Positions 8,575-55,660 of a stretch of DNA of 64,000 nucleotides are shown one piece after another. The notes under the pieces were generated by a model. That model did not search any database. It was not told the DNA's origin and worked only from the letters and a program-made list of their open reading frames with translations. The stretch is from an uncultured bacterium. GTDB lineage: Bacteria; Patescibacteriota; Patescibacteriia; Magasanikbacterales; GWA2-37-8. The DNA lies in contig CALCZC010000007.1 in NCBI GenBank assembly GCA_937903605.1, forward strand, positions 37,982 through 101,981. The letters are read 5' to 3'. Made by a program: the position numbers and the translations under genes. How positions within the stretch are numbered: position 1 is the first letter of the stretch; each line of letters begins with the position of its first letter.

Positions 8575-9576
8575 TTATTTCGTACTTTCGTACTTAATTA
8601 AATCTATCAAACCTTTTATCCAGACCATGTTCACTGCCATCGCTTCTTGCAACGGTGTAGCACCGGTGGTTTCTACTGTGATACAATATGGCGTACCCAA
8701 ACGATAAAAAAGATCTGGCAAGGTTCCATCATGACGAATCACAAAACCGTTTTTATCCGATAACATCGCTTCTTCCAGACAATGACTGCGATCTCCATCT
8801 TTATTCACTTCGCAAAAACCCGCATCAATCATCCTGTTTTTATAAAGCGGAACTATTTTTTTTATATTTTTTATAATATCTTTGTAAACTCCAAGCTTAC
8901 CAAAAGAATAGTGGTAAGAGAAAGGCAAAGAAACACTACTGATATAATCCTGGTGCAAATCAAGCAAAGCCCTGACCTGGGTAAGCGGTTCTTTTTTGAG
9001 AATCTTGTGCATGATTTTTGTTTCCAGAGGTAAATTTTTGGTAATTTCTGAAGACCAATACCAAGCTTTGTAATTATTACTTTTTTTAATATCGTCTTTG
9101 AAAGTTCCATCGGCCATTTCATAGCGCAAATAATCATTATTGCCGGTTTCTCCTTCATCATCATCAATATTATATCTGGTCATCTGTGAAAAACCACTGG
9201 GATTACAAAGAGGATAAATAATCAATTTAACTTTATTTTTTCGCGCATAGGAAAAAATTTCTTTAAGCTTGTTTAAAATCGTCAAAGGACCGGCGGTTTC
9301 TTCACCGTGAATACCGGCGGCAATAAACAAAATTTTGTCTTTGGGTTTAATATCCGCAGAAGCTAGACGTAAAAAATAAAATTGACCGTTTTTATATTTC
9401 AATTTATAAGAAGAAAATTTGATTTTTTTTAATTTTTTGGTTTTTTCTTTTAGAGCTTTGATATATTCGTCAATATCATGACTATAATATAAGCTAACTT
9501 TCCCTTTGTTTTTTTTCATAATAATTAAAAGAAGACAAAATCTTGTTATTTTTTGTTCTAGATTTAAGATCGGCAA
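8575..9576 (-). CDS. M14-like zinc carboxypeptidase / succinylglutamate desuccinylase-aspartoacylase (AstE_AspA) family protein
   Basis: Zn-binding HxxE motif AAGIHGEETAG and later LDLHQD. True start is probably the internal MKKNKGKV near 9519. Confidence 0.55.
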   Translation of the reverse strand: MPILNLEQKITRFCLLLIIMKKNKGKVSLYYSHDIDEYIKALKEKTKKLKKIKFSSYKLKYKNGQFYFLRLASADIKPKDKILFIAAGIHGEETAGPLTILNKLKEIFSYARKNKVKLIIYPLCNPSGFSQMTRYNIDDDEGETGNNDYLRYEMADGTFKDDIKKSNNYKAWYWSSEITKNLPLETKIMHKILKKEPLTQVRALLDLHQDYISSVSLPFSYHYSFGKLGVYKDIIKNIKKIVPLYKNRMIDAGFCEVNKDGDRSHCLEEAMLSDKNGFVIRHDGTLPDLFYRLGTPYCITVETTGATPLQEAMAVNMVWIKGLIDLIKYESTK

Positions 9577-10094: not shown

Positions 10095-10541
10095 TATCTC
10101 AAATCTCAAAACTCAAAAGTCAAAACTACAGCCTTAAGTGTCAAAACTATCTTTTGTTTTTCAAAGTTAAGAGACTTGATCCAAGCATGTTGGCTATTTG
10201 GTTTAGTTCTTCTGTTAATTCTTTGATTTTAGTATTATCCGCTTCTGTGGCGTCTCGTAGTAATCCAAACCAATATTTGCTTTCATTGGCTGATTTCAAA
10301 GCTATTTCATAAAACTTGATAAAGTCTTTTCTTGATGATGAAGATTTGGCTTCTACTATATTAGCTCCGATAGAAGTAGCTGACCGCAGTAGTTGATCAG
10401 CAATTATCCAGTATACTTTCTTTTCAGGTAATGTTTGAAGGAACTTAATAACTTTTATAGAGAAATAATAGCACCTTACTTTAATATCAGTTTTAAGGTT
10501 TTGAGTTGTAGATTTGAGATTTGACATTTGAGTTTTGAGAT
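10095..10541. mobile_element. MITE-like inverted-repeat element carrying the four-helix-bundle gene
   Basis: Left arm ATCTCAAATCTCAAAACTCAAAAGTCAAAACTACAG (10096-10131). Right arm 10497-10541 is its imperfect reverse complement (CTGTAGATTTGAGATTTGACATTTGAGTTTTGAGAT). The same IR family occurs without cargo at three other sites. Confidence 0.45.
10147..10527 (-). CDS. Four-helix-bundle protein (23S rRNA intervening-sequence protein family)
   Basis: Motifs YYFSIKVIKF...ADQLLRSATSIGANIVEAKSSSSRKDFIKFYEIALKSANESKYWFGLL are diagnostic of the TIGR02436-type family. The gene is flanked by about 40-bp inverted repeats. Confidence 0.8.
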   Translation of the reverse strand: MSNLKSTTQNLKTDIKVRCYYFSIKVIKFLQTLPEKKVYWIIADQLLRSATSIGANIVEAKSSSSRKDFIKFYEIALKSANESKYWFGLLRDATEADNTKIKELTEELNQIANMLGSSLLTLKNKR

Positions 10542-10591
10542 AAGAAAGTAGGACTTAGATATTAAGAAAAATTTATATTTTGAGGAATTAT

Positions 10592-11278: not shown

Positions 11279-11446
11279 ATGAGTAGAACTTGCGCTTTGT
11301 GTGGAAAAATAGCTACGCGCGCCAACCATGTTTCTCATGCCAAAAACAAAGTTCCCCGTAAACAGAAACCTAATTTGCAAAATATCAAACTATCTGGGAA
11401 TACTGTCAAAGCTTGCACTACATGTCGCCGTACTATCAAAAAATGA
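11279..11446 (+). CDS. rpmB: 50S ribosomal protein L28 (55 aa; below the ORF-track size cutoff)
   Basis: Translated by hand: MSRTCALCGKIATRANHVSHAKNKVPRKQKPNLQNIKLSGNTVKACTTCRRTIKK. MSRxCxxCGK...GNxVSHAxNK...PNLQ is the L28 signature. Followed by a terminator. Confidence 0.8.
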   Translation: MSRTCALCGKIATRANHVSHAKNKVPRKQKPNLQNIKLSGNTVKACTTCRRTIKK

Positions 11447-11461
11447 ACAAAATAAAAAAAA

Positions 11462-11489
11462 TTCTTCGCCAAAAGCGAAGAATTTTTTT
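11462..11489 (+). terminator. Rho-independent terminator after rpmB
   Basis: TTCTTCGCCAAAAGCGAAGAA hairpin plus TTTTTTT. Confidence 0.6.
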
Positions 11490-11682
11490 AGTTCAACCAA
11501 GGGGTTAAAACATGTCCCTATATGTATAGGTGGTAAGTCACATGTTTAACCCACGGGTCAAACAGATATTGACGAACCTTCACATGTTTTTTGTAGAACA
11601 GTTTCACCCCGTTGGTGGAACGTAGGTATTATACCATAAAACTACCGAAGTCAAAAGTCAAAACTTTTGAGTTTTGGGTTTT

Positions 11683-11712
11683 TAAAAAGCACTCCCGAAG
11701 GAGTGCTTTTTT
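11683..11712. terminator. Bidirectional hairpin terminator between rpmB and ndk
   Basis: AAAAAGCACTCCCGAAGGAGTGCTTTTTTT is a perfect stem flanked by A-run and T-run. Confidence 0.55.
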
Positions 11713-12305
11713 TATTCCAATATTCCGTCCAAGTTCACATCATAAAGAATCTCTTCCGCCAATAATCTATAATTGATAATTTCTTCTTTTTTAAACCAAA
11801 TATCTATCTCTCTTTGGGATTCCGCCGGATTATCGGTACAGTGCACCAAATTGCGCACAGCTCTATCATCTGTCCCGGCTAAATTATAGGAATCAAGTGT
11901 TAAATCTCCGCGAATAGTACCTACATCGGAAGTTGCAGGTTCGGTAGAGCCAACCAGTTTTTTTACCACCCCAACAGCTTCATTACCTTCCCATATCATC
12001 ATCACCACCGGACCACAGGTCATAAACTTTACCAAGGCTTTGATGATATCTTTTCCATATTCAATAGCTAATTTTTCCACCGGCAAACCGGCCTTTTGGC
12101 GATTTTCCAAAATTTTGGCACCTTTACTTTCAAACCAAACATCATCTTTATTATAATGAACCCAACATTGATCCTCTGTTGGCACGGCCATTTTTAAAGC
12201 TACCAGTTTTAAACCGGTTCGCTCGATCCTCTTGATAATTTCTCCTATAAGAGATCTCTGAACTCCGTCTGGTTTAACGATGACGAATGTGCGTTCTTTT
12301 TTCAT
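11712..12305 (-). CDS. ndk: Nucleoside diphosphate kinase (elongated, 197 aa)
   Basis: TFVIVKPDGVQR, GPVVMMIWEGNEAV, GTIRGD and NLVHCTD (Ndk active-site His region). Has an internal insertion and C-terminal extension compared with the canonical ~140 aa. Confidence 0.8.
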   Translation of the reverse strand: MKKERTFVIVKPDGVQRSLIGEIIKRIERTGLKLVALKMAVPTEDQCWVHYNKDDVWFESKGAKILENRQKAGLPVEKLAIEYGKDIIKALVKFMTCGPVVMMIWEGNEAVGVVKKLVGSTEPATSDVGTIRGDLTLDSYNLAGTDDRAVRNLVHCTDNPAESQREIDIWFKKEEIINYRLLAEEILYDVNLDGILE

Positions 12306-12449
12306 AGAATAAAAATTTATTAATTATTATTTATTGTTTATTATTTATATTTTACAAATTTATTTAATTTTAATAAACAATAATCAATAAACAATAATTG
12401 TCTTTTGTTAAAAACTTAGCGCTATTTTATAACAAAAACATGCTTTTTG

Positions 12450-14288: not shown

Positions 14289-14395
14289 ACAAATGGTGGG
14301 CGGAAAGAGACTCGAACTCTTAAGGCCTTGCGACCGCTACCACCTCAAGGTAGTGCGTCTACCAACCTGCCTGCCGGCAGGCAGGTTTCGCCACC
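14289..14395 (-). tRNA. Atypical tRNA-Leu(GAG)-like gene / possible pseudo-tRNA
   Basis: 3' two-thirds is a good tRNA: anticodon arm CTACC TTGAGGT GGTAG, long variable arm, T-arm AAGAG TTCGAGT CTCTT, acceptor 3' TCCGCCC-A-CCA. A 20-nt perfect palindrome CCTGCCTGCCGGCAGGCAGG sits in the D-loop. No 5' acceptor strand complementary to TCCGCCC could be found. Confidence 0.35.
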
Positions 14396-14422: not shown

Positions 14423-14508
14423 GGTGTCCAGAAGAGGACTCGAACCTCCATGGCCTTGCGGCCGCTACCACCTCAAGGTAGTGCGTCTACCAATTTCGCC
14501 ATCTGGAC
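14423..14508 (-). tRNA. tRNA-Leu (anticodon GAG)
   Basis: Acceptor GTCCAGA/TCTGGAC, D-arm GCG AAATTGGTAGA CGC, anticodon arm CTACC TTGAGGT GGTAG, long variable arm CGGCCGCAAGGCCATG, T-arm GGAGG TTCGAGT CCTCT, discriminator A + CC. Confidence 0.8.
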
Positions 14509-14745
14509 TTTTATGTATTCTTTTCCACAACCAGATTTAAGATATTTTTCTCTTTTTCTTGCTTTAATTCTTGATTCGAATTCTTCTGTAAAAATTATTT
14601 TAAATGGTCTATATGGTTTTGTGGTTTTATTTTTTCCCAAATTATGCTGCGTAAATCTTTTTTCTATACAACTTGTAATACCGACATACACATAATTTCT
14701 ACTTAAGCTTTTAAGAACATAAATGTAATACATACTATACATCAA
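14473..14745 (-). CDS. GIY-YIG nuclease family protein (YhbQ-like)
   Basis: YIYVLKS...NYVYVGIT...RFTQHN are the GIY-YIG core motifs. About 90 aa. The last ~12 codons overlap the 5' end of tRNA-Leu. Confidence 0.65.
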   Translation of the reverse strand: MMYSMYYIYVLKSLSRNYVYVGITSCIEKRFTQHNLGKNKTTKPYRPFKIIFTEEFESRIKARKREKYLKSGCGKEYIKVQMAKLVDALP

Positions 14746-15999: not shown

Positions 16000-16006
16000 A
16001 TATTTT

Positions 16007-16128
16007 AAAAGTCAAAATTCAAAAGTCAAAAGTCAAAACTTTGGTGTCCCGATAAATCGGGACAATTTTTATTATAAATATCGCGAAGCGATACAATAGT
16101 TTTGAAATTTGCGTTTTGAGATTTGAAA
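16007..16128. mobile_element. Cargo-less MITE-like element of the AAAGTCAAAA inverted-repeat family
   Basis: Left arm AAAAGTCAAAATTCAAAAGTCAAAAGTCAAAAC and right arm GTTTTGAAATTTGCGTTTTGAGATTTGAAA flank about 60 bp containing palindromes GTCCCGATAAATCGGGAC and ATCGCGAAGCGAT. Confidence 0.4.
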
Positions 16129-17910: not shown

Positions 17911-17956
17911 AAACGTGTATTATGTATTATGTAGAATGTAGTAAGTATTTTACGAA

Positions 17957-18331
17957 TTAATTATTTTTATAATTATATTTTTTCAAACCATTTATCAATT
18001 TACTCACAACTACTGTTTGATTGGCAAATAAACTAAATTTTTCCTGATTAATATATCCAATATCTTTAACTATTAATAATTGATTCTGCAATTCAGTTAA
18101 AGATCCTAAGGCCATGCTAAAAAAATTATTTTTATCCTTAGAGGTTGACCGACTGAAACCTTCAGCTATATTAGATGTAACAGAAACAACACAACGTCTC
18201 ATTTGACTTACTAAACCAAAGATTTCCTTATCCGGAAAATTTCCAGTTTCTTTATAAATTAATAATACTAATTTATGACCTTCTTTCCAAGCATTCAAAC
18301 CTGTAAACGATTTTATTTTCTTCCCCTCCAT
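17957..18331 (-). CDS. Four-helix-bundle protein (23S rRNA intervening-sequence protein family), second copy
   Basis: LVSQMRRCVVSVTSNIAEGFSRSTSKDKNNFFSMALGSLTELQNQLL matches the family core (IAEG...F...A.GS..E). Flanked by AT-rich inverted-repeat-like sequence. Confidence 0.8.
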   Translation of the reverse strand: MEGKKIKSFTGLNAWKEGHKLVLLIYKETGNFPDKEIFGLVSQMRRCVVSVTSNIAEGFSRSTSKDKNNFFSMALGSLTELQNQLLIVKDIGYINQEKFSLFANQTVVVSKLINGLKKYNYKNN

Positions 18332-18369
18332 ATTTAATACATAATACTTAATACATTATACATGCTACA

Positions 18370-19557
18370 TTATTTAATCTTTACAAAAAACCTACTTCCC
18401 TTTTGGACGATATCTCCTTTCTTAATTTCTGTTTTGATATCTTCTACTTTGATATCGTTTATTTTGACTCCACCTTGAGCGATATTTTGTCTGGCTTCAG
18501 AGGTGCTTTTACAAATTTTACTTTCAACAAGCACGGTAATAATATCATTTTTACTTGGGAGAAGTTCGGGAATATCTGTTGGAATTTCTTTTTTGGAAAA
18601 AGTGCTTATAAAATATTCTTGAGCTTTTTGCGCTTCTTCTTCACTATGATACATTTTTACCAAACTTTGTCCGAGCTTCATCTTGTAATCTCGCGGATTA
18701 GCGCCATTTTTCATTTCTTCTTTATATTTTTCTATTTCTTCCATCGAAGTATCAGTTGCCAATTCAAAATATTTCAAAATTAAAGAATCCGGAATTGACA
18801 TTATTTTACCAAACATCTCTTCCGATTTATCGGTCAAACCGATAAAATTTCCGTAAGTCTTACTCATCTTTTTTTCACCATCCAAACCTTCCAAAATCGG
18901 TACAGTTATAATATCCTGTTCCTCTTGATCGTATTTTTTTTGCAATTTTCTACCCATTAACAAATTAAATTTTTGGTCCGTACCGCCCAATTCTACATCG
19001 GCCTCCAGAGCCACGCTGTCATATCCTTGCAATAGAGGATACATTATTTCTTGCATGGCAATATCGTTTCCTTCCGCCAACCTTTTTTGGAAATCATCGC
19101 GTTCCAAAATTCTCGCCACGGTAATTTTTGAAGATAATTCCATAAATAAACGGGCGGAGTCAGGCTTTCCAAACCATTCGCTATTGTGTCTCAATTCAAT
19201 ATTATTAATATCGATAACTTTGGAAGCTTGCTGTACATAGGTTTCCATATTTTTTTTAACCTGCTCCGGAGTCAAAGGCGGACGTGTTTCATTGCGACCG
19301 CTAGGATCGCCGATCATCGCCGTATAATCGCCTATAAGCAAAATTACCTGGTGACCGGCTTTCTGAAACTGACGCAATTTTTGCAAAGGCACGGCATGGC
19401 CGATATGCAATTGCGAGCCGGTCGGATCAATACCAAACTTAATCCTTAATTTTTTCCCGGATTCTAATTTTTTTTTCAAACTTTCTTTTTCAATAGCCTC
19501 ACTCACTCCGCGAGTCAAAAGTTCGTTGATTGTTTGTTCATCAATTTTGATTTTCAT
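18370..19557 (-). CDS. tyrS: Tyrosine--tRNA ligase
   Basis: HIGH (GSQLHIGHAVP), KMSKS (KKMSKTYGN), C-terminal S4 domain. 395 aa. Confidence 0.9.
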   Translation of the reverse strand: MKIKIDEQTINELLTRGVSEAIEKESLKKKLESGKKLRIKFGIDPTGSQLHIGHAVPLQKLRQFQKAGHQVILLIGDYTAMIGDPSGRNETRPPLTPEQVKKNMETYVQQASKVIDINNIELRHNSEWFGKPDSARLFMELSSKITVARILERDDFQKRLAEGNDIAMQEIMYPLLQGYDSVALEADVELGGTDQKFNLLMGRKLQKKYDQEEQDIITVPILEGLDGEKKMSKTYGNFIGLTDKSEEMFGKIMSIPDSLILKYFELATDTSMEEIEKYKEEMKNGANPRDYKMKLGQSLVKMYHSEEEAQKAQEYFISTFSKKEIPTDIPELLPSKNDIITVLVESKICKSTSEARQNIAQGGVKINDIKVEDIKTEIKKGDIVQKGSRFFVKIK

Positions 19558-19672
19558 ACTTTATAATTATTAAATAATAAGCAGGGTATAAAGTATCAAG
19601 TATGGAAACTTAATCTTAAATCAAAAGACCAAACCTTCCATACTTAATACTAAATACTATATACTAAATACC

Positions 19673-22324: not shown

Positions 22325-22556
22325 AAAATACGAAAAATACACAAAAGATTTCCGAGTTAATATCGGAATCTCTTTTTTTGTAATTTTACAGGAAAAAAAA
22401 GAAATTTGCAAGGCAAATTTCGACTTCGGACTATAGACTACAGACTGTAATTAGACTTCAGTCAATCAGACTACGGACTACATATAGACTGGAGTCTGAA
22501 GACCGTAAATTATTGACGTTTTTTATTTAATATTAGCCAAAAAACAGCTTAGACAC

Positions 22557-22585
22557 TTGACAAAATAGTCAAAATATGCTATCAT
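22557..22585 (+). promoter_or_regulatory. Near-consensus sigma-70-type promoter (TTGACA-17-TATCAT)
   Basis: TTGACA at 22557-22562, 17-nt spacer, TATCAT at 22580-22585. Sits inside a repeat-dense 620-bp intergenic region, about 440 nt upstream of the next ORF. Confidence 0.5.
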
Positions 22586-23029
22586 ATATTGTTTAGTGCC
22601 TGGATTTTCGCTAAAATATGTTTAGACTTCGGACTACGGTCTACGGACTTCTCGGTAAGCAGAAGACTGAAGACAGTAGACTGAAGACCAATATCGCTCT
22701 TTACAATAAATGTGTGTGTTTAACCGGACTTCAGACTACAGGCTACAGACTACAAAATCTGGAGGCTGAAGACTGAAGACCGAAGACTAGTGTTAATTGG
22801 ATGAAGAGAGAAAAGTATGAAATAAGCTAGTAAGCAATAAGCTTGTAAGTCTACCTATCGGTAGACAGGCTGATAAGCTAAGAAGTTGACGAGATACAAA
22901 GCCCATGAAATAAATTTTAAAGAGGGCTGTAGTCAGAAGACTGTAGACTGAAGACCGAATTTACTTTTTTCTTTCCATCCAATTAACATATATTTTAAGC
23001 ATTACAAACAACAATACAAGGAGCGTGTC

Positions 23030-23671: not shown

Positions 23672-23708
23672 AAGAGCCAAGGCTTTCTGCCGAGGCTCTT
23701 TTTTTATT
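23672..23708 (+). terminator. Rho-independent terminator after lipoprotein A
   Basis: AGAGCCAAGGC...GAGGCTCT hairpin + TTTTTTT. Confidence 0.55.
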
Positions 23709-23761
23709 TATCCTGTGAAATTCTAAATATTTTAATATTGTAATATTTTAATATTTTATTT

Positions 23762-25141: not shown

Positions 25142-25223
25142 ATAGTTATTTTAGATAATTTATATACTACAATATATAATATATCAGACTATTTATATTT
25201 TGTCAATATAAAAAAGATATTTT

Positions 25224-25370
25224 TCTCTTGACAATCCCTCTGTTTTATGTCAATATACGTTGTTTAGTCTCAATATCTGCGCTAAAATAAAAAATATAAA
25301 TAGCTCTTTAATAATTTTTTAATGTGTTATAAACTTTTTGCAAGGAGAGTGTCATGAAAAAGAACGCTTT
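25224..25370 (+). repeat. About 147-bp promoter/leader repeat (copy 1), identical to 27489-27635
   Basis: TCTCTTGACAATCCCTCTGTTTTATGTCAATATACGTTG...TTTTTGCAAGGAGAGTGTCATGAAAAAGAAC is shared verbatim upstream of lipoprotein genes B and C and includes a TTGACA box. Confidence 0.7.
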
Positions 25371-25851
25371 CACGGTCACGGTTGTGGCCATCGCCTTTGC
25401 CTTCATTTTCATCGCCTGTGGCGGTGAGGAACCGGAACATCCGGATGACGATCAGAACAATGACGAGATTGCTGTTACCGACGATGAGCCGGACAACGAA
25501 CAGCCCGATGATGTTATCGATGAAGAAAATCCTGATGAAGATCAAGTAGTTATCGCAAATTGCGAAAAATTACTTGACATTGTCGGAGATTGGACTAGTA
25601 TCAATATTGAAGGGTATGATATTACGGTAACAGTCACACCCAAAGAAAAAAATTGTGAAGTAGCAGTGGAATGGACCAAAGGATATTCCGGAGTACAAAA
25701 ATGGTATGGATTAGAGCTCCCCCTGACTTATTGGGAAGAGGAAGCTTATAGAAACTACACCCTGAAAAAAACCGGAGAAAATCTGGTTCGAGAAGATACT
25801 CTTAAAACTGGAGGATTTGATAATGAGTGGGTCTTCAAAAAAATTCAGTAA
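25354..25851 (+). CDS. Acidic lipoprotein, paralog B
   Basis: MKKNAFTVTVVAIAFAFIFIACGGEEPEHPDDDQNNDEIAVTDDEPDNEQPDDVIDEENPDEDQ. Lipobox FIACGG. C-terminal ~90-aa domain with 2 Cys, similar to paralog C. Confidence 0.6.
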   Translation: MKKNAFTVTVVAIAFAFIFIACGGEEPEHPDDDQNNDEIAVTDDEPDNEQPDDVIDEENPDEDQVVIANCEKLLDIVGDWTSINIEGYDITVTVTPKEKNCEVAVEWTKGYSGVQKWYGLELPLTYWEEEAYRNYTLKKTGENLVREDTLKTGGFDNEWVFKKIQ

Positions 25852-25946: not shown

Positions 25947-26026
25947 ATCCAATTTTTCTTTTCTTAATATCTTCACCCCGTGAAATTCTAAATATTTTAA
26001 TATTGTAATATTTTAATATTTTATTT

Positions 26027-27396: not shown

Positions 27397-27488
27397 ATAT
27401 AATCATTACTTTTTAATTAAATATAAGGATTTCTATTCCTTATATTTATTATAAAATAAAGGAATAGAAATGTCAAGAGAGAAAAATG

Positions 27489-27635
27489 TCTCTTGACAAT
27501 CCCTCTGTTTTATGTCAATATACGTTGTTTAGTCTCAATATCTGCGCTAAAATAAAAAATATAAATAGCTCTTTAATAATTTTTTAATGTGTTATAAACT
27601 TTTTGCAAGGAGAGTGTCATGAAAAAGAACATCTT
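27489..27635 (+). repeat. About 147-bp promoter/leader repeat (copy 2)
   Basis: Identical to 25224-25370. Confidence 0.7.
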
Positions 27636-28143
27636 TTCGGTCACGGTTGTAACCATTGCCTTTACCTTCATTTTCATCGCCTGTGGCGGTGAGGAACCGA
27701 ACCTTCCTGATGATGATCAAGACAACGATGAAATCGTTGTTGTCGACGATGAGCCGGACAATGAACAACCCGATGATATCGTGGACGAAGAGCCGGTTGA
27801 CGATGACCAGCTTCCGCTGGAGGAAGTTTGCAAGAATTTCCTTGACTATGCCGGAAATTGGACTATCGTTGATATGAGTTTTACCGGTGATTTCAGTGTG
27901 ACCCTCTCAGTTGAAGGAGAGGAATGCAAGATATCTGTTGTTGGCACAACGGAATTGGCATGGATTTTTGCCTGGAAAGGGAAAGAGATGCCTCTTGCAT
28001 GCGCTGAATTTGCGCCTATGACTTATTTTTTTTACCTTGTGGGGAAAAATGAAGCTGGGAGAATGATCTGGATAAAAGGTTGGGATGAAGAAAGTTGTAA
28101 AGATGCTGAAGCGGCAATGGTTATAACGCTTGAGAAAAAATAG
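27619..28143 (+). CDS. Acidic lipoprotein, paralog C
   Basis: MKKNIFSVTVVTIAFTFIFIACGGEEPNLPDDDQDNDEIVVVDDEPDNEQPDDIVDEEPVDDDQ. C-terminal domain (CKNFLDYAGNWTIVDM...ECKISVVGT) resembles paralog B (CEKLLDIVGDWTSINI...NCEVAVEWT). Confidence 0.6.
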   Translation: MKKNIFSVTVVTIAFTFIFIACGGEEPNLPDDDQDNDEIVVVDDEPDNEQPDDIVDEEPVDDDQLPLEEVCKNFLDYAGNWTIVDMSFTGDFSVTLSVEGEECKISVVGTTELAWIFAWKGKEMPLACAEFAPMTYFFYLVGKNEAGRMIWIKGWDEESCKDAEAAMVITLEKK

Positions 28144-28206: not shown

Positions 28207-28256
28207 TTCTTTATATCAACTTTATATACTTAATACTAAATACTTAATACTTTATA

Positions 28257-31200
28257 CTATTCTACTATTACATTTCCATTATATTCTATCCAGGGATACA
28301 TTGGAGAAGCAGGATTACCATTTTCAGGTACACAATCGCTTGCCGCACCATCTGCATAACACCCATAATTCCTTGTTCCATAAGGATTATTCGTAGTGCA
28401 TCTCCCACTACACCACCCCCAATTATCCAAAACCTGGACTCGCGGAGTACTAGTACTTGGAGTACTGGTATAAGTAAAGTGAAATTCGTATGGCGTGTTT
28501 TTGCAACCAGTACCATCTGTACCGCTCTTATTTCCAAAACTTCCCGGATCATTGTCTCCTTCTACAAAAGTAACACAGCGAGATGTTTGAACTGTCATCT
28601 TACCTCCAGCTTTCTTTTTTGCATCATAAAATACACAGTCTTCAGCTTTGTTACAAGGAATTTGATATTGATAGTTTGCTGGTTCATATTCACACCATCC
28701 AACGTGAGTACAAAGCGGTTTGCGGTTAGCAATACTGCGAGCTTCCAAAACTATTGCGGGGTCTTCGGTTTTTGTTTGATACATTATCCGACGTACCGGC
28801 ATTTGTGCCGGGTCAGCCCAAGCATAAAATTCCAGAGCCACATCGGAATTAGGACTTACGGTACAATTACCACCACTTAACAATTCATCACTACAATTTG
28901 ACTTATTAACCACTACTGTATTTAAAGCAAATGTTTTACAATCAGGTTTTCCACCTGCGGCTTTATAAGCCTCGCAATCCGCAGATCCGGGAGATAGTTG
29001 TATAGGCGCAGCAATCACTGGTGGTTTGATATTAACGTCACAACTCGAAGCCCTTTCAGGACTGGCACAATCTATTGGGGATTTAAAAGTTAATTTGGTT
29101 GGCTCCTTGAATTCATTTACCGAGCTGGTTGGGAAGACCCTGACAAACATATTTTTTAACATTTCCCCATATTTAAGGTCTTCTAAACTATAAATTCCAA
29201 ATCTAGGAAAACTAATTTCTGTTTCTATGTCATTTCTATTTTCATAAGAAATCAAGGGACTACGTACACGTTCACGTTCATCCAAATAAAAACCAAATTC
29301 ATTTGTTTTTCCCCCATAATATGTAGTCAAGAAAGGATTTGTCAAATCGGGAAAGGTAAAGTAGCCTGTCATATCCAACTTCGGTTCCTTGATGCCCTGA
29401 AAATAAGATCTATTTAAAGTATACGAATTGGTAGCAAAACGAGTGCTAGCCGTTTCATCTTTTGGAATATTGTAAACCGTATATGTTTGATCAGGATATA
29501 GCGTATCACCCATATTGGTTTTTCCTTTGATTAATCTCCAAGTAACTGGTTTGGCGTCAATGGCAATTTCAGCTGCTTGGGCACTTGCCCCTGGAGGACG
29601 ACTATTTTTTGAAACTTTGGCAAACTCTGTACAAGAACCATCAGAAAAATGTATGACAAAGAAAAAATTAATACCTGCTGTATGACCAGCATTATCATGT
29701 AAATCCAGTTGCGCACCGAGTAATTGATCATCGCTCCCCCAAATAATCCTTGCACCAAAACCATCAAAATCGGTTTCATATGAATTAGCTTCAAATTTTG
29801 TAGGACTTGTCGGCAAACCAAAAGTATCTTCTGTTTCGCTATAAAAAAACATTTTTTTCTTGTCCTTTGATTCAAAATAATCATACTCCTCACCTTCTCC
29901 TTTATTAGCCATAACCTTAACTTCCCAAATAGTTTTTCCATCCTTCTTGTAAGTACTTTTTCTTATTAATTGTTCTCTGTTATTACCATCTTTTAGCGGT
30001 ACTCCGAGTTTAGATTGCTTAATACAAACATCTTCCAAATCGTTTTCGCAATCATAACTTTTTTTATCGGTCGAATTTTTTTCTTTGGGCGAACAATCTA
30101 CTCCCTCTGTCAAATAACAACCGGTAATCTCTTTATTTTCAAAAGTAATAATGTTGTTGTTGAAAAATTGTTCTGTTGCTATTGGATTATCTGTACCATT
30201 CGCGACTATCCAGCCGGGAGACTCTCCTATACCAAAAAAATTAACCACGCCCTTTTTCTTCAATTCTTGGTAAGTTTTCCCCAAAACTAAATCTATTTTG
30301 ACCACATCTGTTTTCTTGATTTTTCCATTATTGTAAAAAGACGGTTCTGTAGCAGGAGTAAAAACACCAGTGAGTCTATCTTGAAATTCGCTGACTTTAT
30401 TATTATCAAGACTTAATGGACAATATACTCGAGTGTTATCTTTTTTTAGACTTTCAATAACTCCTTGTCTTAGAACAGGAAAAACCTTATTATCCATATC
30501 ATTGAAACATTTCAGTATATGAGCATTCGGTGGTAAATTATAAACCATGGCCGAAGAAACGTAGTTATGGTATGTAATCGTCTGAGAAGCTTGAACCATC
30601 CAATCAACTACCACACCTAGAGCTGCCACCCAACCGAATATAGAACTTACCGAAGCTGCAACAGCTGCCGCAATAGAGGCTGCAACCGCTCCGCCTATGG
30701 CTCCCGCTATACCTGTAATAAGGGCTGTCGTTCCAGCTACCATGCCAAAAGTTAAGGGGAACGAGCCACCATCAACCCAAGCAACACCTACGGCCGCATA
30801 TTTTTCCTCGTTGTTTATTGCTAATGCAGCATCTGTCATTTCTTGTGTTGAAGTAGAAAAACAAACATATTCTTCATCAATCTCATCTACGAGATATACT
30901 TCGCCAATCTTTCCTCCTGGTGTAGTTGTACAATACCCAGCATCACTCATTTGTTGAGTACATTTCAATGTATCCACTTGCATGTATGGCTTTGTACATC
31001 CTCCCCTAGTTAAATAAGCTGTTTCACACACACATCCTTTTTCCCATACCACCTGTTTGCTTGTAAAAAACTTATCACTTTTTACCATATTTATAGAAAA
31101 AGCATTGGCACCAGCTCCACCCAGATCAACGCAATTATCATTATCACCACCTAGATCACAATATTTGAAAACATCCACAGTGGTTGTCCTGCTTTCAACT

Positions 31201-34200
31201 TCTACATTTTTGGCATTATCGATCTCTCCTGCGCTAACAGGGTTACCTGCGTTAAAATAAAATTCTAAATTTGGCAAGGGTTTCAATTTTAACGGCTGAT
31301 TGGCAATACACATATATCTATCCTTGGTATCATTTCCTTCATAAGCGGCTTTTTTATCAATTATCCAAATATCCGGCGCACCAGGAGGAACCTCCACCGG
31401 CCACCAAGTCAAACAAGGATTTTGTTCTGGTTCCCCATAAAGCTTATACTTGGGATTTTTTTCTACACAATAACCTTGCCAACCTCTAACCTCGTTTACA
31501 CTTTTTTTATTAGCGCAAATTCCTCCTCCACATTGTTCGCTATTAACACACGGTGTTCCTTCGGTTTCAAGCGAACCGCCAATACAAATACTTTGGGATT
31601 CCCTTTCTGTCCCTAAAGGAAAATAAACAAACTGGTTATTATATTCTACTTTTTTATAACTACAATCACAGGAATCCTCTTTATTTACAGTGGTACAAAT
31701 TTCTAAAGCCTTATTTTTAACAAGATATGCGTAAGCACTCCTAGAAACAGGTGTCACTCCTTCGATTGTTTCAATAATACCCCATGGATCAAATGGACTG
31801 TTTTCTTCCGGATAACCACGACAAGAAAGTTCACCGGAAGTCCTGAGTTTGCCACGATTTCTTATCATATTATTTTCTATTCCACCGGTAATAGGATATA
31901 TACACTCTCCACCTAAACACAAACCTTCTTTATTTAAACCACAAGACTTTGTCATGGTATTATCAAACTTGTTACATTCCTGAACATTTCCTTGACCAGG
32001 GACAAAAATATTTCCACTATTTTCCCAATGGACCAAGCGCGGTTCAAAATAAACACCTTCTTCTCCACTACTTTGCACCAAATTACCCACATTATATGGT
32101 TCAACATCGTTCATACGAATATACCTTACTCCCAAAGACGGAATCTGATAAGAATTGTGTAAAGTATAACCACTTAATTCCGGATCTGCCCAATTAACAC
32201 CTCTGCTTCTATAATTACTGGTGGTTATTTTTGAATTTCTCCAAGCCCAGCTATCCAAAGTAACATTTTGATCGCAATTTCCTTCTGAAAACATACCTGG
32301 GAGAGATTTACTACACAAACCAAAGCTATAGCATCTGGCTTTATCATCTTCTACTTGATAATTGTTACAATACATCCAAAGATTGCATTCGCGATCACGG
32401 GCAACTTTTACCAAAATATTGGCGTCTCTAGTCTCTGTTTCTACCGGTGGCACCGGAGCTCCTTTGACCGCGTTGGAAGCCTCATAAGTAGCTTCTGTGT
32501 TATATTTTTTATTTGGATTATTTACTTGATCAAGTAATACACAACCATAATTCACACTCGCGCCATTGGGACATTCTTCGTTTATTTTTTCACTCAATTT
32601 CCCATTATCAATGAGATAGTAAGAATTGGCAGCCGGAATACAAGTATCCCCTTGTTGAGAGCTGCAATCTTTATCGTATTCACATTTCATCCCTGATATG
32701 CTGCATTTTTTAACCGAAACATCGTTATGATCGTCAAATCTAGAACAACCATCTTGAGAAGAAGGGCACTCGCCTACATAGCCTCTGTAGCTTGTCGTAT
32801 TACCAAACGGTGGCAAAGAAATGCCAAGACCGGTAGCACAAACCTGTGTTTCATCATCTTTTAACACCCATTTACCGATTTTGGAATTACCAACGGTTTC
32901 CTCTTTATAAACACAAACTTTTTTACCAATGTTTTCCGGATCTTTAAAATAATAATTTCCTGAACCGGAACGCCAAACATCACACCCTTCAGCTTCTTTG
33001 GTACAGAGAATTCCACGATTATTACTACCTGACGATTCATAGCGAGTAGGATCGTTGATAATATAGGCATCTTCAAAAACGTATGTATTGGTGACATTTT
33101 TATATCCTTTACCCATCAAAGTACAGCCAACATTGTCTTTGTTACAAAAATTATTTACATTATCATTTTTTCTAATTGTCAAATAAATAGGCGAACTTGT
33201 TGGAGAAGTCTGTTTATAAACCAAAACCGTTGAAGTGGTAAACGCAGCACCGGTTAAAGAGCTTTGTCCGATACCGGAAGCATTTACATAACAACCGCCT
33301 TCGCCATCGGGCACAATACAATCATAATTTATACCGTTGATTTGAATAGTTGGTTTATTGCCAACCTCCGGTTTTTGTAAACCTAGATTAAATATCTGCC
33401 AAGTGGTGCTGGCGATATTACTACCTTTATTGTAAGTATCAACCAAACGAGTACAACCAATAGCCCCATCTCTGCAAAGATAACTGAAATTGTGTAAATA
33501 AATATTATCTTTACTAAGCGGAGATTTGTAAGCACGACAACCCAAGGCAGAACCTGGGAGGTTATCTTTTTGATCAAGATCGCATGATGCAGGAACCGAA
33601 AGTTTATCTTTTACCAGATAAACTGTGTCGTCTATACTTTTTAACGAAACATTATCCAAGAAGATAACTCCTCCAGCTCTATTATAATCTAAAAATATTA
33701 TATGAGCCCCTTCACCAGATGGCACACTCCCGCTAATAGCGGGATTACTTATTACGAATTCATAACGACGCCAATTGTCTGTCAAATTAACAGTTCCAAC
33801 ATTGTAGGTAAAGCCATTACCCAAAGTGATATCCCATCTTTTTGTACCTTTGGCTAAGAAAGAAAGTGAATAAACTCCGGTATTTTTTATATCCGTATTA
33901 TAATGTCTAAAACCTCGAGTAGCAGTACCGCTATTTGCCGCCACTGTAACTTTCAAAGATTTACCAAAATTGGATAACGTTTCTTCTGACAAAGAGATGG
34001 TAGTACCATTGTCAGCACTTTCGCTTGTCTTCCACCAGCCCCTTTTTGTATTGGAAACCATATTAGTCAAACCGATACCAGAGTCAAAACTATATGTAGG
34101 GAAAATATCTCTTATATTATTACCAGTGTTACCTTGATATTTGCGACATGATACTTTGTCTTGAGAACAAATTTTACTTTCAGCCCCACCAGCAACCACA

Positions 34201-37187: not shown

Positions 37188-37284
37188 ACTTTAAAGCAGA
37201 ACGAATTATTAATTATTGTTTATTGTTTATTAAAAAACTTTTATGTTTTTAAAAAATAAACAATAATCAATACGCAATAATTTT

Positions 37285-46495: not shown

Positions 46496-46622
46496 ACAGT
46501 AAAAAGTTGAAAGTTAAAAGTTGTAAAGTTATAAGTCAAAAAATTCACCCGAGAGTGAATTTTTTTTATTATTAATATTTTAATCCGATACTTTCTACTT
46601 TTAACTTTTCACTTTTAACTTA
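46496..46622. mobile_element. Cargo-less MITE-like element of the AAAGTYAAAA inverted-repeat family (contains the terminator of the upstream gene)
   Basis: Left arm AAAAGTTGAAAGTTAAAAGTTGTAAAGTTATAAGTCAAAA. Right arm CTTTCTACTTTTAACTTTTCACTTTTAACTT is its imperfect reverse complement. Internal hairpin AATTCACCCGAGAGTGAATTTTTTTT. Confidence 0.4.
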
Positions 46623-48215
46623 TATCAGACTTCTCCCATTCATCTCTTCCGGTTGCGACAATCCCAACAAAGCCAGCACTGTCGGCGCTACATCAGCCAG
46701 CATGCCAACCGGTGAAAGCAGACTTAAATCCCCTTCCGGCGGATCTCCGGCCGGACCGGCTTGACCCAAGAAATCATTACTGACTATGTAAAGCGGCACC
46801 GGATTGGTAGAATGTTCTTTGTCCATCCCGCCGGTTTGCAAATTAAAAACTTCCTCGGCGTTACCATGATCGGCAGTCATCACCAAAACTCCGTTTTTCA
46901 ATAAAATTTTATCTACGATACTACCTAGACATTTATCAATGGTTTCCACGGCTTTTATGGTGGCTTCCAAATTACCGGTATGTCCAACCATATCGCCATT
47001 GGCAAAATTTACCGCAATAAAATCATGTTTTCCTTCATCTATCACTTCTAAAATCTTTTTAGTAATTTCATAAGCCGCCATTTCCGGTACATCCTCAAAC
47101 GAAGAAACTTTGGGAGACGGAGCGATAAACCTATCTTCCCCAGGATAGGGTTCTTCCACCATTCCGTTTAGAAAAAAGGTGATGTGAGCATATTTTGTTG
47201 TTTCTGCAATATGATATTGTTTTAGACCAGCTCGACTGACCACTTCCGCCAAGACATTACGCAATACTATCGGTTTATAAGCTATTTCTACTGGTAGTTC
47301 TTTTTCATATTCGGTCATGGTCGCAAAAAACAAATTATTTATTTTTTTTCTGGGAAATTTATCAAAACTCGGCAGAACAAAAGCTTTGGTCAATTGTCTG
47401 GCTCGGTCAGGACGAAAATTATAAAAAATGACTGCATCGTTATCTTCTATCAACGCTACTGGTTTTTCTTTTTCTGTAATCAAAGTAGGAATAAATTCTT
47501 CATCGTAATTTTTTTCAACATAAGAAGATTCAATTGCTTCAAGCGGATCTTTGTTTTTCCTTTGGGCCACACCCTCAACCAGCATCTTATAAGTTTTTTC
47601 AGTTCTATCCCATTGATTATCTCTATCCATAGCATAATAGCGACCGCTCAAACTGGCGATTTTACCTATTTTAAATTCTTTTATTTTTTCTTGCAATTGT
47701 TGTGTAAAAACCTTGCCGGAATTATAGATAGAATCTCGCCCGTCCAAAAAAGTTTGAATAAAGACATTATTTTTCAAGCCGTTTTCTTTTGCCATTTTCA
47801 AAAGAGCATATAAATGATCCGGACTACTATGGGTTTTACCGCCAATGAGCCCCATCAAATGCAGTTTTGAATTATGTTTTTTCACATGTTCTATCGCTTG
47901 TAAAAAAACCGGATTTTGAAAAAACCTGCCGCTCTCTATCTCATTATCAATACGCGGCAAAGTTTGATAATAAACTCGACCAGCTCCAATATTTAAATGT
48001 CCAACCTCGGAATTTCCCATTTCACCAAAACTCAAACCAACATCCGTGCCGGAGGCTTGTAAAGTAGAAACGGGATATGATTTGCAAAGTTGATCTAGAG
48101 TTGGAGTTTTGGCCAAAGCAATAGCATTACCCGGACCCTTCGGCGCCACTCCCCAGCCGTCTAATATCACTAATACTACTGGTCGATATTTATACATAGA
48201 AAATTTAAAATTCAA
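46620..48215 (-). CDS. gpmI: 2,3-bisphosphoglycerate-independent phosphoglycerate mutase (copy 1)
   Basis: VVLVILDGWG, catalytic-Ser region MGNSEVGHLNIGAGRV, ADHGN metal site, size about 525 aa. Start probably the internal MYKYRPVV. Confidence 0.85.
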   Translation of the reverse strand: MNFKFSMYKYRPVVLVILDGWGVAPKGPGNAIALAKTPTLDQLCKSYPVSTLQASGTDVGLSFGEMGNSEVGHLNIGAGRVYYQTLPRIDNEIESGRFFQNPVFLQAIEHVKKHNSKLHLMGLIGGKTHSSPDHLYALLKMAKENGLKNNVFIQTFLDGRDSIYNSGKVFTQQLQEKIKEFKIGKIASLSGRYYAMDRDNQWDRTEKTYKMLVEGVAQRKNKDPLEAIESSYVEKNYDEEFIPTLITEKEKPVALIEDNDAVIFYNFRPDRARQLTKAFVLPSFDKFPRKKINNLFFATMTEYEKELPVEIAYKPIVLRNVLAEVVSRAGLKQYHIAETTKYAHITFFLNGMVEEPYPGEDRFIAPSPKVSSFEDVPEMAAYEITKKILEVIDEGKHDFIAVNFANGDMVGHTGNLEATIKAVETIDKCLGSIVDKILLKNGVLVMTADHGNAEEVFNLQTGGMDKEHSTNPVPLYIVSNDFLGQAGPAGDPPEGDLSLLSPVGMLADVAPTVLALLGLSQPEEMNGRSLI

Positions 48216-48225
48216 AATTCAAAAT

Positions 48226-49788
48226 TTATAACAGACTTTTTCCTGTCATTTCTTTGGGTTTTTTGAGACCCATCAATTTCAAAATTGTTGGAGCAACATC
48301 AGCCAATTTACCTTTTGATAATCTTTTTTTCTTTTTATAATATTCTTTTCCGGCAATGATAAATGGTACGGGATTGTTGGAATGCTCTGTATCAATTTCT
48401 CCGGTTTTGATATTTATCATTTCTTCCACATTACCGTGATCGGCGGTGATCAAAACAGTTATTTTATTTTTTTCCGCCGCTTTTAATAATCTGTTTACTT
48501 CTTCGTCAATATTTTTAACCGCCAAAATTCCAGCCTGTAAATCCCCAGTATGGGCCACCATGTCTGGATTGGGATAATTGACACAAATAAAATTATATTC
48601 TTTTTTTTCTATTTCTTTGATTATAACGTCGGTCATTTCTTTGGAGCTCATTTGAGGACAAGTGGCATAATTATCCACTACCTTACTTTCTATTTTGATC
48701 CAACGTTCATCACAAAAATGTCTGGCATAACCGCCATTAAAAAAATAAGTAACATGAGCATATTTTTCAGTCTCGGAAATATATAGTTGTTTGAGCGGAC
48801 ACAAAACCTGCGGTAAACTATTTATCACATCGCGAGACGGAAAAGCGGTCAAAACTCCTGGTAGATCCGGCCCAAAATCAGACATAGCCACAAAACGAAT
48901 ATTTTTGGGAATTCTGGTACGACGAAAAGCGTTGGGGTTTATTTTTTCAAAATCAGGTTGGACGAAAGCTTTAGTCAGTTGTCGCGCCCTATCACTTCTC
49001 AAATTAAAAAAGAAGATGGCATCATTATCATTAATTTTGGCAATGGGTTTACCTTTTTCTAAAATCACGGTCGGTTTAATAAATTCGTCGGTTTCTCCGG
49101 AATTATAAGCCTGGGTCAGTGCATCTGTAGGTGAATTTGCTGTTCGACAACTTCGACATTCTACCAAAGCATCGTAGGCCTTTTTGATTCTCTCCCAATT
49201 TTTACCTCTATCCATGCCATAAAAACGACCGAGAATAGTGGCAATTTTTTCATTTCCATGAAATCTTTCTTTCAAAAGTTTTAGGTGTTGAGGGGCGTTA
49301 TGTTGTCCAGAATCGCGCCCATCAGTAAAAAGGTGTAAATAAACTTTTTGAATTTTTTCTTGATGAAAATAATCAAGCAATGCATATAAATGTTCGGGAC
49401 AAGAATGAGCGCTGTTATGATTGGAAAGTAAACCGACAAGGTGAACAGCAGTATTATATTTTCTGACATGATGTAGGACTTGGTCAAAAGCCGGATTTTT
49501 GAAAAAGGTACCGTCATCAATAGCGTCACTGATATAGACCGCGTCTTGTTTTACTACTCGACCGGCACCCAAATTCATGTGTCCGGCTTCACTGTTCCCG
49601 TCTTCATTTTTAAAAAGACCCACAGCTTCTCCACTAGCTTCAAGTTTTGTATTTGGATAATCTTTTAACCAACGAAAATAATTCGGGGCATTCTCAGGCG
49701 TCACCGGATTTCCTTTGTTTTTTAATTCGGCAATTCCCCATCCATCCATTATAACCAACATTACCGAATTTTTATTATTCTTTTGCAT
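48226..49788 (-). CDS. gpmI: 2,3-bisphosphoglycerate-independent phosphoglycerate mutase (copy 2, tandem paralog)
   Basis: [32 protein letters not shown]. 520 aa. About 35-40% identical to copy 1 by eye. Confidence 0.85.
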
Positions 49789-55540: not shown

Positions 55541-55660
55541 AAATATTGAATATTAAATATTGGATATTACTTTTCTTAAAAAACAATATTCAATATCCAG
55601 TATTCAATATTAAATCAGGCTTTTTAAAAGTATACCACAAATAAACAAACTAGACCAAAG

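Follow-up and report, generated by a model that had tools for sequence, protein, structure and literature searches.

Inverted heptamer arrays around four-helix-bundle genes in a Magasanikbacterales genome: a probable intervening-sequence-type cassette outside rRNA

A 64,000-nucleotide stretch of DNA from an uncultured bacterium of the Magasanikbacterales (contig CALCZC010000007.1, positions 37,982 to 101,981; hereafter the window, 35.6% G+C and about 92% coding) contains a gene for a small four-helix-bundle (4HB) protein, of the family known from the intervening sequences (IVS) of rRNA genes, enclosed by imperfect inverted repeats. The question raised by this locus is how the gene and the repeats belong together. 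The first-pass annotation took the repeats for a family resembling miniature inverted-repeat transposable elements (MITEs) that sometimes carries the gene. The analysis described here reverses that relation: the gene is probably carried by a selfish hairpin cassette, complete in itself and of the IVS type, which resides outside rRNA and of which the MITE-like hairpins are derivatives.

A profile search of the window found only two genes of the 4HB family PF05635, whose products share only 27% identity. The first (10147-10527, minus strand) lies between a peptidase M50 gene and a holin-like gene and encodes a protein of 126 amino acids and isoelectric point (pI) 9.6, which matches PF05635 with E 5e-24 (85 bits; cut-off 33.8) and TIGR02436 with E 1e-27 (96.5 bits; cut-off 24). 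Its 5′ arm (10489-10542, minus strand), detected both as an inverted repeat and by Tandem Repeats Finder, is an array of CAAATCT/CTCAAAA heptamers with a CTACAAC motif; this arm holds the ATG (10525-10527) and codes for the disordered first 11 or so residues of the protein. The 3′ arm (10095-10148, minus strand), found by the same two means and by word matching, is the inverted array and starts at the stop codon. The arms are 74% complementary over 54 nt, with a core of 25 nt at 92%, and constitute the longest inverted repeat of the whole window; Tandem Repeats Finder assigns them a period of 7, with 4.3 copies of CTCAAAA and 4.6 of AGATTTG. The bracketing of this gene by CTCAAAA-type inverted repeats, as first described, is therefore borne out.

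The second gene (17957-18331, minus strand) encodes a protein of 124 amino acids and pI 9.7 that matches PF05635 with E 1e-33 (115.8 bits), TIGR02436 with E 1e-31 (109 bits; cut-offs as above) and also PHROG 3206. Its 5′ arm of (A/T)GTATNN heptamers (18330-18373, minus strand) occupies the entire spacer between the genes for tyrosyl-tRNA synthetase (TyrRS) and the 4HB protein, and its 3′ arm (17916-17949, minus strand) the entire spacer between the latter and the gene for arginyl-tRNA synthetase (ArgRS), so that both spacers (38 and 46 nt) are wholly taken up by arms. These are complementary at 82-84% over 31-33 nt and again have a period of 7 (TGTATTA, 4.9 copies; TAATACA, 4.1 copies). Each of the two 4HB genes is enclosed by the longest inverted repeats of its neighbourhood. 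PADLOC defence-system models gave no match.

Relatives of the first protein number more than 4,700, with more than 120 clusters at 67-99% identity in many phyla of the candidate phyla radiation (CPR). For subfamily 1, 80 loci were taken from species-representative genomes, including CPR bacteria, Dehalococcoidia and one Omnitrophota genome; for subfamily 2, 80 metagenome loci were used. Inverted-repeat frequencies refer to 77 and 74 loci respectively (151 in all), at a score threshold of at least 14. A flanking inverted repeat is present at 92% of the subfamily-1 and 89% of the subfamily-2 genes, compared to 4.5% and 1.8% for other genes in the same loci (2.8% and 0% for genes of at most 200 amino acids). 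The best local inverted repeat between the flanks has a median score of 21 in subfamily 1 and 18.5 in subfamily 2, against 8.5 in displaced windows, and the best arm period is 7 in 91-96% of arms across both subfamilies, compared with about 15% in controls. The median copy number of clean arrays is 4.1-4.7, whereas whole arms comprise 6-8 units and some 10-14; no claim is made that some five heptamers per arm mirror a pentamer. By Rfam, rRNA is absent from the window and from loci L001-L021 (20 subfamily-1 loci tested), and these cassettes therefore do not lie in an rRNA helix.

The heptamer words are specific to each subfamily and are kept from CPR bacteria to Chloroflexi. Subfamily 1 arms are built of NNTCAAA units with a conserved inner CCACAAC/GTTGTGG motif, and subfamily 2 arms of NGTATNN or TGAATNN units whose inner end often lies over the ATG (..GTATGGAG / CTCCATAC..); the inner ends are conserved in both (CCACAAC; ATGGAGGG). 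Where these loci also contain more distant 4HB genes, the arms of those genes are repeat arrays of other words, two of them with a period of about 10-11 nt. Strict heptamer arrays number 342 in the 735 kb of loci, 63% of them within 160 nt of a 4HB gene, and three of the six strict cargo-less hairpins carry the word of the resident cassette. The sole conserved open reading frame (ORF) between the arms is the 4HB gene itself. It is clear that arms and ORF travel together across phyla and that each protein subfamily has a heptamer word of its own. The single repeat family first proposed must therefore be divided into several, which differ in their words and go with different 4HB subfamilies.

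The same design occurs in other phyla. A tblastn search of plasmids returned 30 records with a 4HB gene, mostly from Nostocales, and in nine of the ten plasmid-borne regions inspected (cyanobacteria, Riemerella and Azospirillum) heptamer arrays, mostly inverted, flank the gene. The words are AGGAGTC in Aulosira and N. punctiforme, GTGACAG in Anabaena 90, AGGAGAT in Picosynechococcus, AGCTAAA in Calothrix, CAGAGGG in Stanieria, GGTTCAA in Riemerella and GGACAGA in Azospirillum; the arrays of Pseudanabaena are (CTAAAAG)14 and (CCAAAAG)10. In Azospirillum the host sequence is a 23S rRNA gene (Rfam LSU, 2537 bits), and the copy is a classical helix-45 IVS, with a stem of the same heptamer-array type. 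Several other copies are placed within cas operons, in the orders cas6/4HB/cas4 (Anabaena sp. 90, Pseudanabaena) and cmr2/4HB/cmr3 (Picosynechococcus PCC 7003); in loci L170, L173 and L179, which are cyanobacterial plasmids, they have the orientation of the cas genes and heptamer arrays on both sides. 4HB genes in cas operons had been noticed earlier and left unexplained (PMC3936711). In the IVS of Coxiella burnetii, RNase III cuts a 28-bp terminal stem, and the S23p start is immediately preceded by GACAGAT heptamers, two to three of them depending on the strain (PMC4990558). In CPR bacteria, 23S_rRNA_IVP ORFs are spread over several 16S and 23S insertion sites (PMC11270868).

The AlphaFold2 model of the first protein has a predicted local distance difference test (pLDDT) score of 90 and four helices (residues 15-30, 37-62, 66-93 and 98-124); residues 1-11 score below 50. 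Foldseek matches the model to 2RLD (template-modelling score, TM, 0.78-0.90), 2GSC (TM 0.76-0.78) and bAvd (4DWL), the Avd protein of a diversity-generating retroelement (DGR), and it superposes on bAvd both alone and inside DGR ribonucleoprotein structures. Profile matches were likewise to 2GSC (Xcc0516) and 2RLD (BT_0352), each of which holds five chains. The second protein matches PHROG 3206, “Avd protein of DGR”, at 9e-10, and matches to the Avd models lie below cut-off (bAvd 20.8 bits, cut-off 40; NF033474 21 bits, cut-off 80). In Pfam and NCBIfam only 4HB/Avd families were found, and no HUH or other nuclease motif in the 4HB. The family motif GxxRxxxSxxxNxxE (PMC3936711) is present as Q45xxR48xxxS52xxxN56xxE59 in protein 1 and Q43xxR46xxxS50xxxN54xxE57 in protein 2, the first position being Q, not G; the QxxRxxxSxxxNxxE positions are invariant in A1 and A3. 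The ratio of non-synonymous to synonymous divergence (dN/dS) is 0.07-0.16 in the five pairs with estimable dS, at pI 9.5-9.7: 0.16 for cassette 1 against L008, the sole subfamily-1 pair with usable dS, and 0.07-0.15 for cassette 2. These ratios indicate that the 4HB genes are under purifying selection. The protein is thus a basic bundle with a function, and it probably forms oligomers and binds nucleic acid.

The heptamers are not confined to the two cassettes. Triple heptamers of the TCAAA type have 15 matches in the window against 1.09 expected, all in cassette 1, 11666-11684, 16005-16126 and 48205-48230; those of the type GTATNNN have 12 against 0.24 expected, all in cassette 2, 19586-19671 and 28226-28257. 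This is well beyond chance, and it upholds the first-pass annotation both in its cargo-less relatives at 16005-16126 and 11647-11682, which have TCAAA words, and in its second gene with inverted repeats of a different word that recurs elsewhere. The hairpin at 16005-16126 has two small palindromes in its loop; that at 11647-11682 is a miniature with two heptamers per arm, immediately upstream of a canonical terminator. At 48200-48230 there is a solo AAAATTC/TCAAAAT array with no inverted partner, and at 28226-28258 a solo GTAT-family array. A further hairpin, at 46498-46621, surrounds a bidirectional terminator between convergent genes. The first-pass annotation described it (at 46496-46622) as a hairpin enclosing a terminator, which is correct, and placed it in the word family of cassette 1, which was rejected; the TCAAA pattern gives no match there and the word is AAAGTTR, a third one. 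It resembles the arms (AAGTGAA) of an additional 4HB gene of another subfamily at locus L076.

The GTAT-family hairpin at 19586-19671 contains ATGGAAGGTTT and a C-terminal remnant. Among 160 cassettes its best arm matches are those of L101 and L084, and the match spans ATGGA(A/G)GGTTT, that is the start and first codons (36/41), and the segment after the stop (22/26); its loop bears a remnant of C-terminal codons, as judged by eye. Since the start-codon region and the C-terminal remnant are both kept, this hairpin is an internally deleted cassette of the L084/L101 type. The window thus holds a class of heptamer hairpins that differ in their words, and for two of the word families it also holds a 4HB gene.

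Mobility was assessed by comparison with related loci, beginning with the site of cassette 2, where the gene order is conserved: valyl-tRNA synthetase, TyrRS, (4HB), ArgRS, bactofilin, diacylglycerol kinase (DAGK). A cassette occupies the TyrRS-ArgRS site of the window, of L086/L087 (TyrRS 93%) and of L084/L085 (90%); in L088/L089 (TyrRS 73%) the site is empty and the spacer is 39 nt. A paralogue in L086/L180, 81% identical and with the same ATGTATT/TGTAG arms, lies immediately after DAGK, a site that is empty in L084 and has a GIY-YIG gene in the window. The cassette ORFs of the window and L086 are 97% identical in nucleotides (dS 0.10) and their flanking genes (TyrRS, ArgRS, bactofilin and DAGK) only 77-86% (dS 0.85-1.44); the cassette is therefore much younger than its surroundings, which points to a recent exchange at the same site. 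Between the window and L084, cassette divergence equals that of the flanks. Even within the 97% identical pair the arms differ by gain of a unit and by shuffling. A cargo-less hairpin of a fourth word family, ATTTATT/AATAAAC, at 12316-12397 (the family also occurs at 37204-37281 and 28-53) has an orthologue in L180 (4930-5060) that is short of one unit of about 7 nt in both arms, a difference that aligns as a symmetric gain or loss of repeat units. Taken together, these two comparisons show that the arrays turn over fast while staying complementary.

The genes flanking cassette 1 were not found at any of the 80 subfamily-1 loci, and an exact look-up of its peptidase M50 neighbour, made in search of an empty site, returned no record; the case for the mobility of cassette 1 therefore rests on the total lack of shared flanks in those 80 loci. 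Among 73 loci the pairs of flanking genes make up 69 distinct contexts, and among 55 loci they make up 44; no conserved neighbour gene (reverse transcriptase, toxin or nuclease) was found in 128 loci. Viral contigs gave no relative of subfamily 2. Cargo-less copies vary in the same manner. The spacer in L084 orthologous to that of the TCAAA hairpin at 16005-16126 is without it, and in L086 (6655-6800) an unrelated GC-rich inverted-repeat element (GTCATCCCCGCGAAGGCGGGGAT ... ATTCCCGCCTTCGCGGGAATGAC) stands in its place, so that a second kind of small insertion uses this spacer. The GTAT hairpin at 19586-19671 is missing in L084 and L088, and the L086 spacer has a different GTAT-type hairpin. 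By these alignments, hairpins without cargo have been inserted where close relatives lack them, and one or more of them derive from a cassette by deletion. The comparison of presence and absence proposed at the outset thus finds copies with and without cargo polymorphic among close relatives (L084, L086 and L088).

Could the 4HB protein instead be a resident of the host, a nucleic-acid-binding regulator or RNA chaperone with the arrays as its operators, immobile, its patchy distribution due to loss and ordinary gene transfer? Strong purifying selection on a basic protein, the sharing of word arrays between a cassette and the hairpins of the same genome, and strict sense orientation within operons (see below) would all be expected of such a regulator. 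However, the context differs at almost every locus, the flanking genes exceed the cassette in dS by a factor of 8-14, a second site is occupied by a paralogue whose arms are the same, and one hairpin holds remnants of the ORF. Furthermore, homologous units reside inside rRNA helices, where an operator role makes little sense. We regard a resident regulator as unlikely.

The reading that we prefer, that of a selfish IVS-type cassette, can be put as follows. The cassette opens with a 5′ array, of about 4-7 heptamers; inside this array starts the 4HB ORF, of some 125 codons, and at its stop codon the inverted array begins. Its habitat here is the short spacers of protein-gene operons, always in sense orientation, instead of rRNA. 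Read-through from the host operon would provide its transcript, in which the arms would pair; by analogy with the rRNA IVS, RNase III may cut there, making the insertion tolerable. The 4HB oligomer may bind its own heptamer arrays and promote their maintenance or spread.

Several observations on orientation, expression and folding bear on this. Where both neighbours could be called, their orientations relative to the 4HB gene were ++ in 103 cases, -+ in 15, +- in 8 and -- in none, so that an intact 4HB gene is never antisense to its operon. Such strict orientation could result from a step at the level of the transcript, from a bias between replication strands or from the decay of copies that are not expressed. 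In both cassettes, sites resembling promoters or terminators do not exceed the expectation from shuffled sequence, and read-through transcription is the simplest reading of how they might be expressed. In folds of the sense RNA, the terminal arms pair in both the minimum-free-energy (MFE) and the centroid structure of both cassettes (z -2.8 and -1.7). Compensatory double changes occur at 11 of 23 consensus stem pairs (for example C-G in 13 and U-A in 4, none broken) in 17 arm-only constructs, a set that was picked for complementarity and is biased accordingly.

A number of points weigh against the proposed cassette. The 103:0 orientation could reflect replication-strand bias or the survival of expressed copies only, and the fold z-scores are modest. 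Arm mismatches show no excess of sense G:U over A:C (158 versus 206; arm composition confounds this comparison), and therefore a constraint at the RNA level is not shown; one from a DNA hairpin or from protein binding is equally possible. No RNase III (rnc) gene was found among the only ten window ORFs that were scanned, and no mobility enzyme was identified. The arrays of Pseudanabaena and of the gamma-plasmid copy of Nostoc 7120 are direct or unpaired, not inverted, those of the latter failing to pair. Lastly, the evidence on these copies comes from sequence and from predicted structures.

Some of these points would fit a hairpin acting in DNA, as single-stranded hairpins or cruciforms during replication, in the manner of REP/REPIN-RAYT or of IS200/IS605 ends; orientation would then follow the replication strand and RNA processing would be irrelevant. 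The missing G:U excess, the lack of target-site duplications (TSDs; see below) and the loss of a heptamer unit from both arms of the orthologous hairpin are compatible with such a process, and a gene between inverted copies of a dispersed hairpin mirrors REPIN-RAYT. Yet the 4HB has no HUH or other nuclease motif and matches only S23p/Avd bundles, and its rRNA homologues are proven RNase III substrates (PMC4990558); as for orientation, the replication strand is inseparable from the direction of transcription in the present data. A DNA-level hairpin is judged quite unlikely.

How, then, would an IVS-type cassette move? The TSDs for which the first-pass annotation had advised a check did not emerge: in 148 cassettes the longest direct repeat across the outer ends measured 4.15 against 4.03 in controls, and 4.07 against 3.81, and therefore classical cut-and-paste transposition is excluded. 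Nor was there a transposase in the 69 and 44 flanking contexts. Spread would more probably proceed between arrays that have a word in common, through recombination or template switching; this fits because of the same-site replacement, the absence of duplications and the word specificity. The older view, of a DDE-type non-autonomous MITE or transposon mobilised by a transposase in trans with the 4HB gene as an occasional passenger, agrees with the inverted ends, the small size, the cargo-less copies and their presence or absence among relatives. To that extent a MITE-like family was rightly perceived, with gene and repeats forming one unit. But a classical MITE, which remains a very improbable explanation, would not be expected to lack TSDs (none above permuted controls) and a transposase, nor to end in variable heptamer arrays in place of unique termini, and a gene that has arms in about 90% of 151 homologous cases, with a word that follows the subfamily, is no occasional passenger; it is the cassette that is the full-length element, and the cargo-less hairpins look like its derivatives. 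Finally, a chance proximity of slippage-born arrays to 4HB genes, in spacers rich in AT, can be dismissed, even though heptamers are described as the commonest long simple repeats in many bacteria, with slippage as the proposed origin (PMC4692102 and PMC4679880, both citing Mrazek 2007). Arms flank 89-92% of 4HB genes against 2-5% of other genes of the same loci, each subfamily keeps its own words over the range from CPR to Chloroflexi, and the arrays are inverted with conserved inner ends.

Several other features of the window may be recorded here. Next to the miniature hairpin, about 160 nt (11480-11640) between the terminator and that hairpin fold strongly, the 265-nt spacer having an MFE of -89.8 kcal/mol; this segment may be an unannotated small RNA. 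Rfam has no family for the hairpins, nor, even at E of at most 1, for 11440-11720. The solo GTAT array at 28226-28258 comes directly after the stop codon of a giant ORF of 2976 amino acids (28257-37187, minus strand). A fifth word family, AATATTG, is found in a cargo-less hairpin at 55542-55615. The 618-nt divergent spacer at 22412-23029 is full of GACTACR/GAAGACT arrays, which form a cluster of three to four heptamer hairpins at 22427-22960; the window has no matching 4HB gene. At the site after the DAGK-like gene, the GIY-YIG ORF (14473-14745, 90 amino acids, Pfam E 8.5e-17) overlaps a tRNA-Leu gene; in relatives the spot has a 4HB cassette (L180, 2501-2890) or is empty (L084, about 8706-8720), and it looks like a hotspot for small selfish genes. 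That tRNA gene is the second of two tandem tRNA-Leu(GAG) genes (14294-14376 and 14423-14508), both predicted by ARAGORN and only the second by Rfam at gathering score. The plus-strand genes at 25354-25851 and 27619-28143 are preceded, within 25142-25353 and 27397-27618, by a common leader of about 150 nt (TCTCTTGACAATCCCTCTGTTTTATGTCAATATACG...GCAAGGAGAGTGTC) that looks like a duplicated regulatory module, and the spacers at 23700-23760 and 25965-26026 have GTGAAATTCTAAATATTTTAATATTGTAATATTTTAATATTTTATTT in common. The 350-nt divergent spacer at 1988-2337 comprises a CT-rich tract (CTCCCTCTCCCTCC...), strong GC-rich hairpins and a nonamer array (GACTTTATA)x4.3.

The finding holds well outside the window and joins three loose ends: the intervening sequence, an orphan 4HB family and heptamer repeats. 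To our knowledge, the S23p/IVS family has thousands of members and two crystal structures, its only known function being that of its Avd relatives; the rRNA IVS, again as far as we know, was put forward as a possible mobile element as early as the first years of the 1990s, and still is, but has no known life outside rRNA. A tentative generalisation, which we hold to be doubtful as it stands, is that PF05635 4HB oligomers are sequence-specific binders and propagators of heptamer arrays, that the cassette is a widespread mobile element without a nuclease, with the rRNA IVS as its best-known habitat, and that its footprints and ORF-less derivatives account for the heptanucleotide repeats (the short tandemly repeated repetitive, STRR, sequences, TAACTGA, GGGAATC and the like) of cyanobacteria, Bacteroidota, Xanthomonas, Beggiatoaceae and CPR bacteria. 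If this were general, the IVS would be one habitat of a larger family of elements that also lives in operon spacers, including those of cas operons; the 4HB protein would have a concrete partner in its own heptamer array; unexplained heptanucleotide repeats in many bacteria would have a candidate source; and the filler of a large share of the scarce non-coding DNA in the tiny, dense genomes of CPR bacteria would be identified. For annotation, the hairpins may be mistaken for terminators and the N-termini encoded by arms for real protein sequence. No description of a general link between 4HB genes and heptamer arrays was found in the literature searched, the coverage of which was incomplete, so that an earlier description may exist.

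The cassette can be set beside five known systems. Avd, a homologous basic four-helix bundle, forms a pentamer, to which RNA and reverse transcriptase are bound in the ribonucleoprotein of the DGR. Unlike Avd, the 4HB genes have no reverse transcriptase, template or variable repeat beside them, and their neighbours in the window are housekeeping genes; under the doubtful generalisation above, the strict sense orientation and the relationship to Avd would permit a spread by way of RNA, with a reverse transcriptase supplied in trans. The heptanucleotide arrays (cyanobacterial STRR, TAACTGA and the Xanthomonas GGGAATC) are likewise tandem heptamers, in 2 to more than 40 copies, in intergenic DNA, and arrays of exactly this kind flank the cyanobacterial 4HB genes of the present analysis. 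PMC4692102 treats the Xanthomonas and Nostoc repeats and PMC4679880 TAACTGA in Beggiatoaceae, Cyanobacteria and Bacteroidetes; the repeats are unexplained, and their strain-specific copy number and sporadic distribution suggest horizontal spread “with no evident mechanism” (PMC4679880, PMC4692102). They differ from the cassette arms in being mostly direct, not inverted, and neither paper draws a link to 4HB genes.

Bacterial MITEs resemble the cargo-less hairpins in being small, non-coding spacer copies with inverted-repeat ends and variable presence, at least one of which arose from a coding parent by internal deletion. In contrast to them, the cassettes have no TSD or transposase parent, their ends are variable arrays, and their copies are few and divergent. 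REPIN-RAYT resembles the cassettes in its arrangement, with a single small gene between inverted hairpin repeats that are also dispersed without the gene in spacers and after genes, and no TSD. However, RAYT is an HUH Y1 nuclease (TnpA_REP), whereas the 4HB has no catalytic motifs, and the repetitive extragenic palindromes (REPs) are unique GC-rich palindromes, whereas here there are heptamer arrays.

The closest likeness is to the rRNA IVS, both of the Leptospira, Coxiella and Salmonella type and as the rRNA insertions of CPR bacteria. The protein family is the same; terminal inverted repeats form a stem that encloses the ORF, an arrangement that is general in the 151 loci considered here; the stem is composed of tandem heptamers in variable copy number (Coxiella GACAGAT, PMC4990558, and the Azospirillum 23S copy); and the insertion is in sense relative to the host transcript, the IVS itself having long been suspected of mobility. 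The differences are that the present cassettes are found in spacers between protein-coding genes and not in an rRNA helix, that derivatives without the ORF are scattered in the same genome, and that the protein is under selection, while the Coxiella authors argue for the decay of theirs. The cassette has every tested feature of an rRNA IVS bar its defining location.

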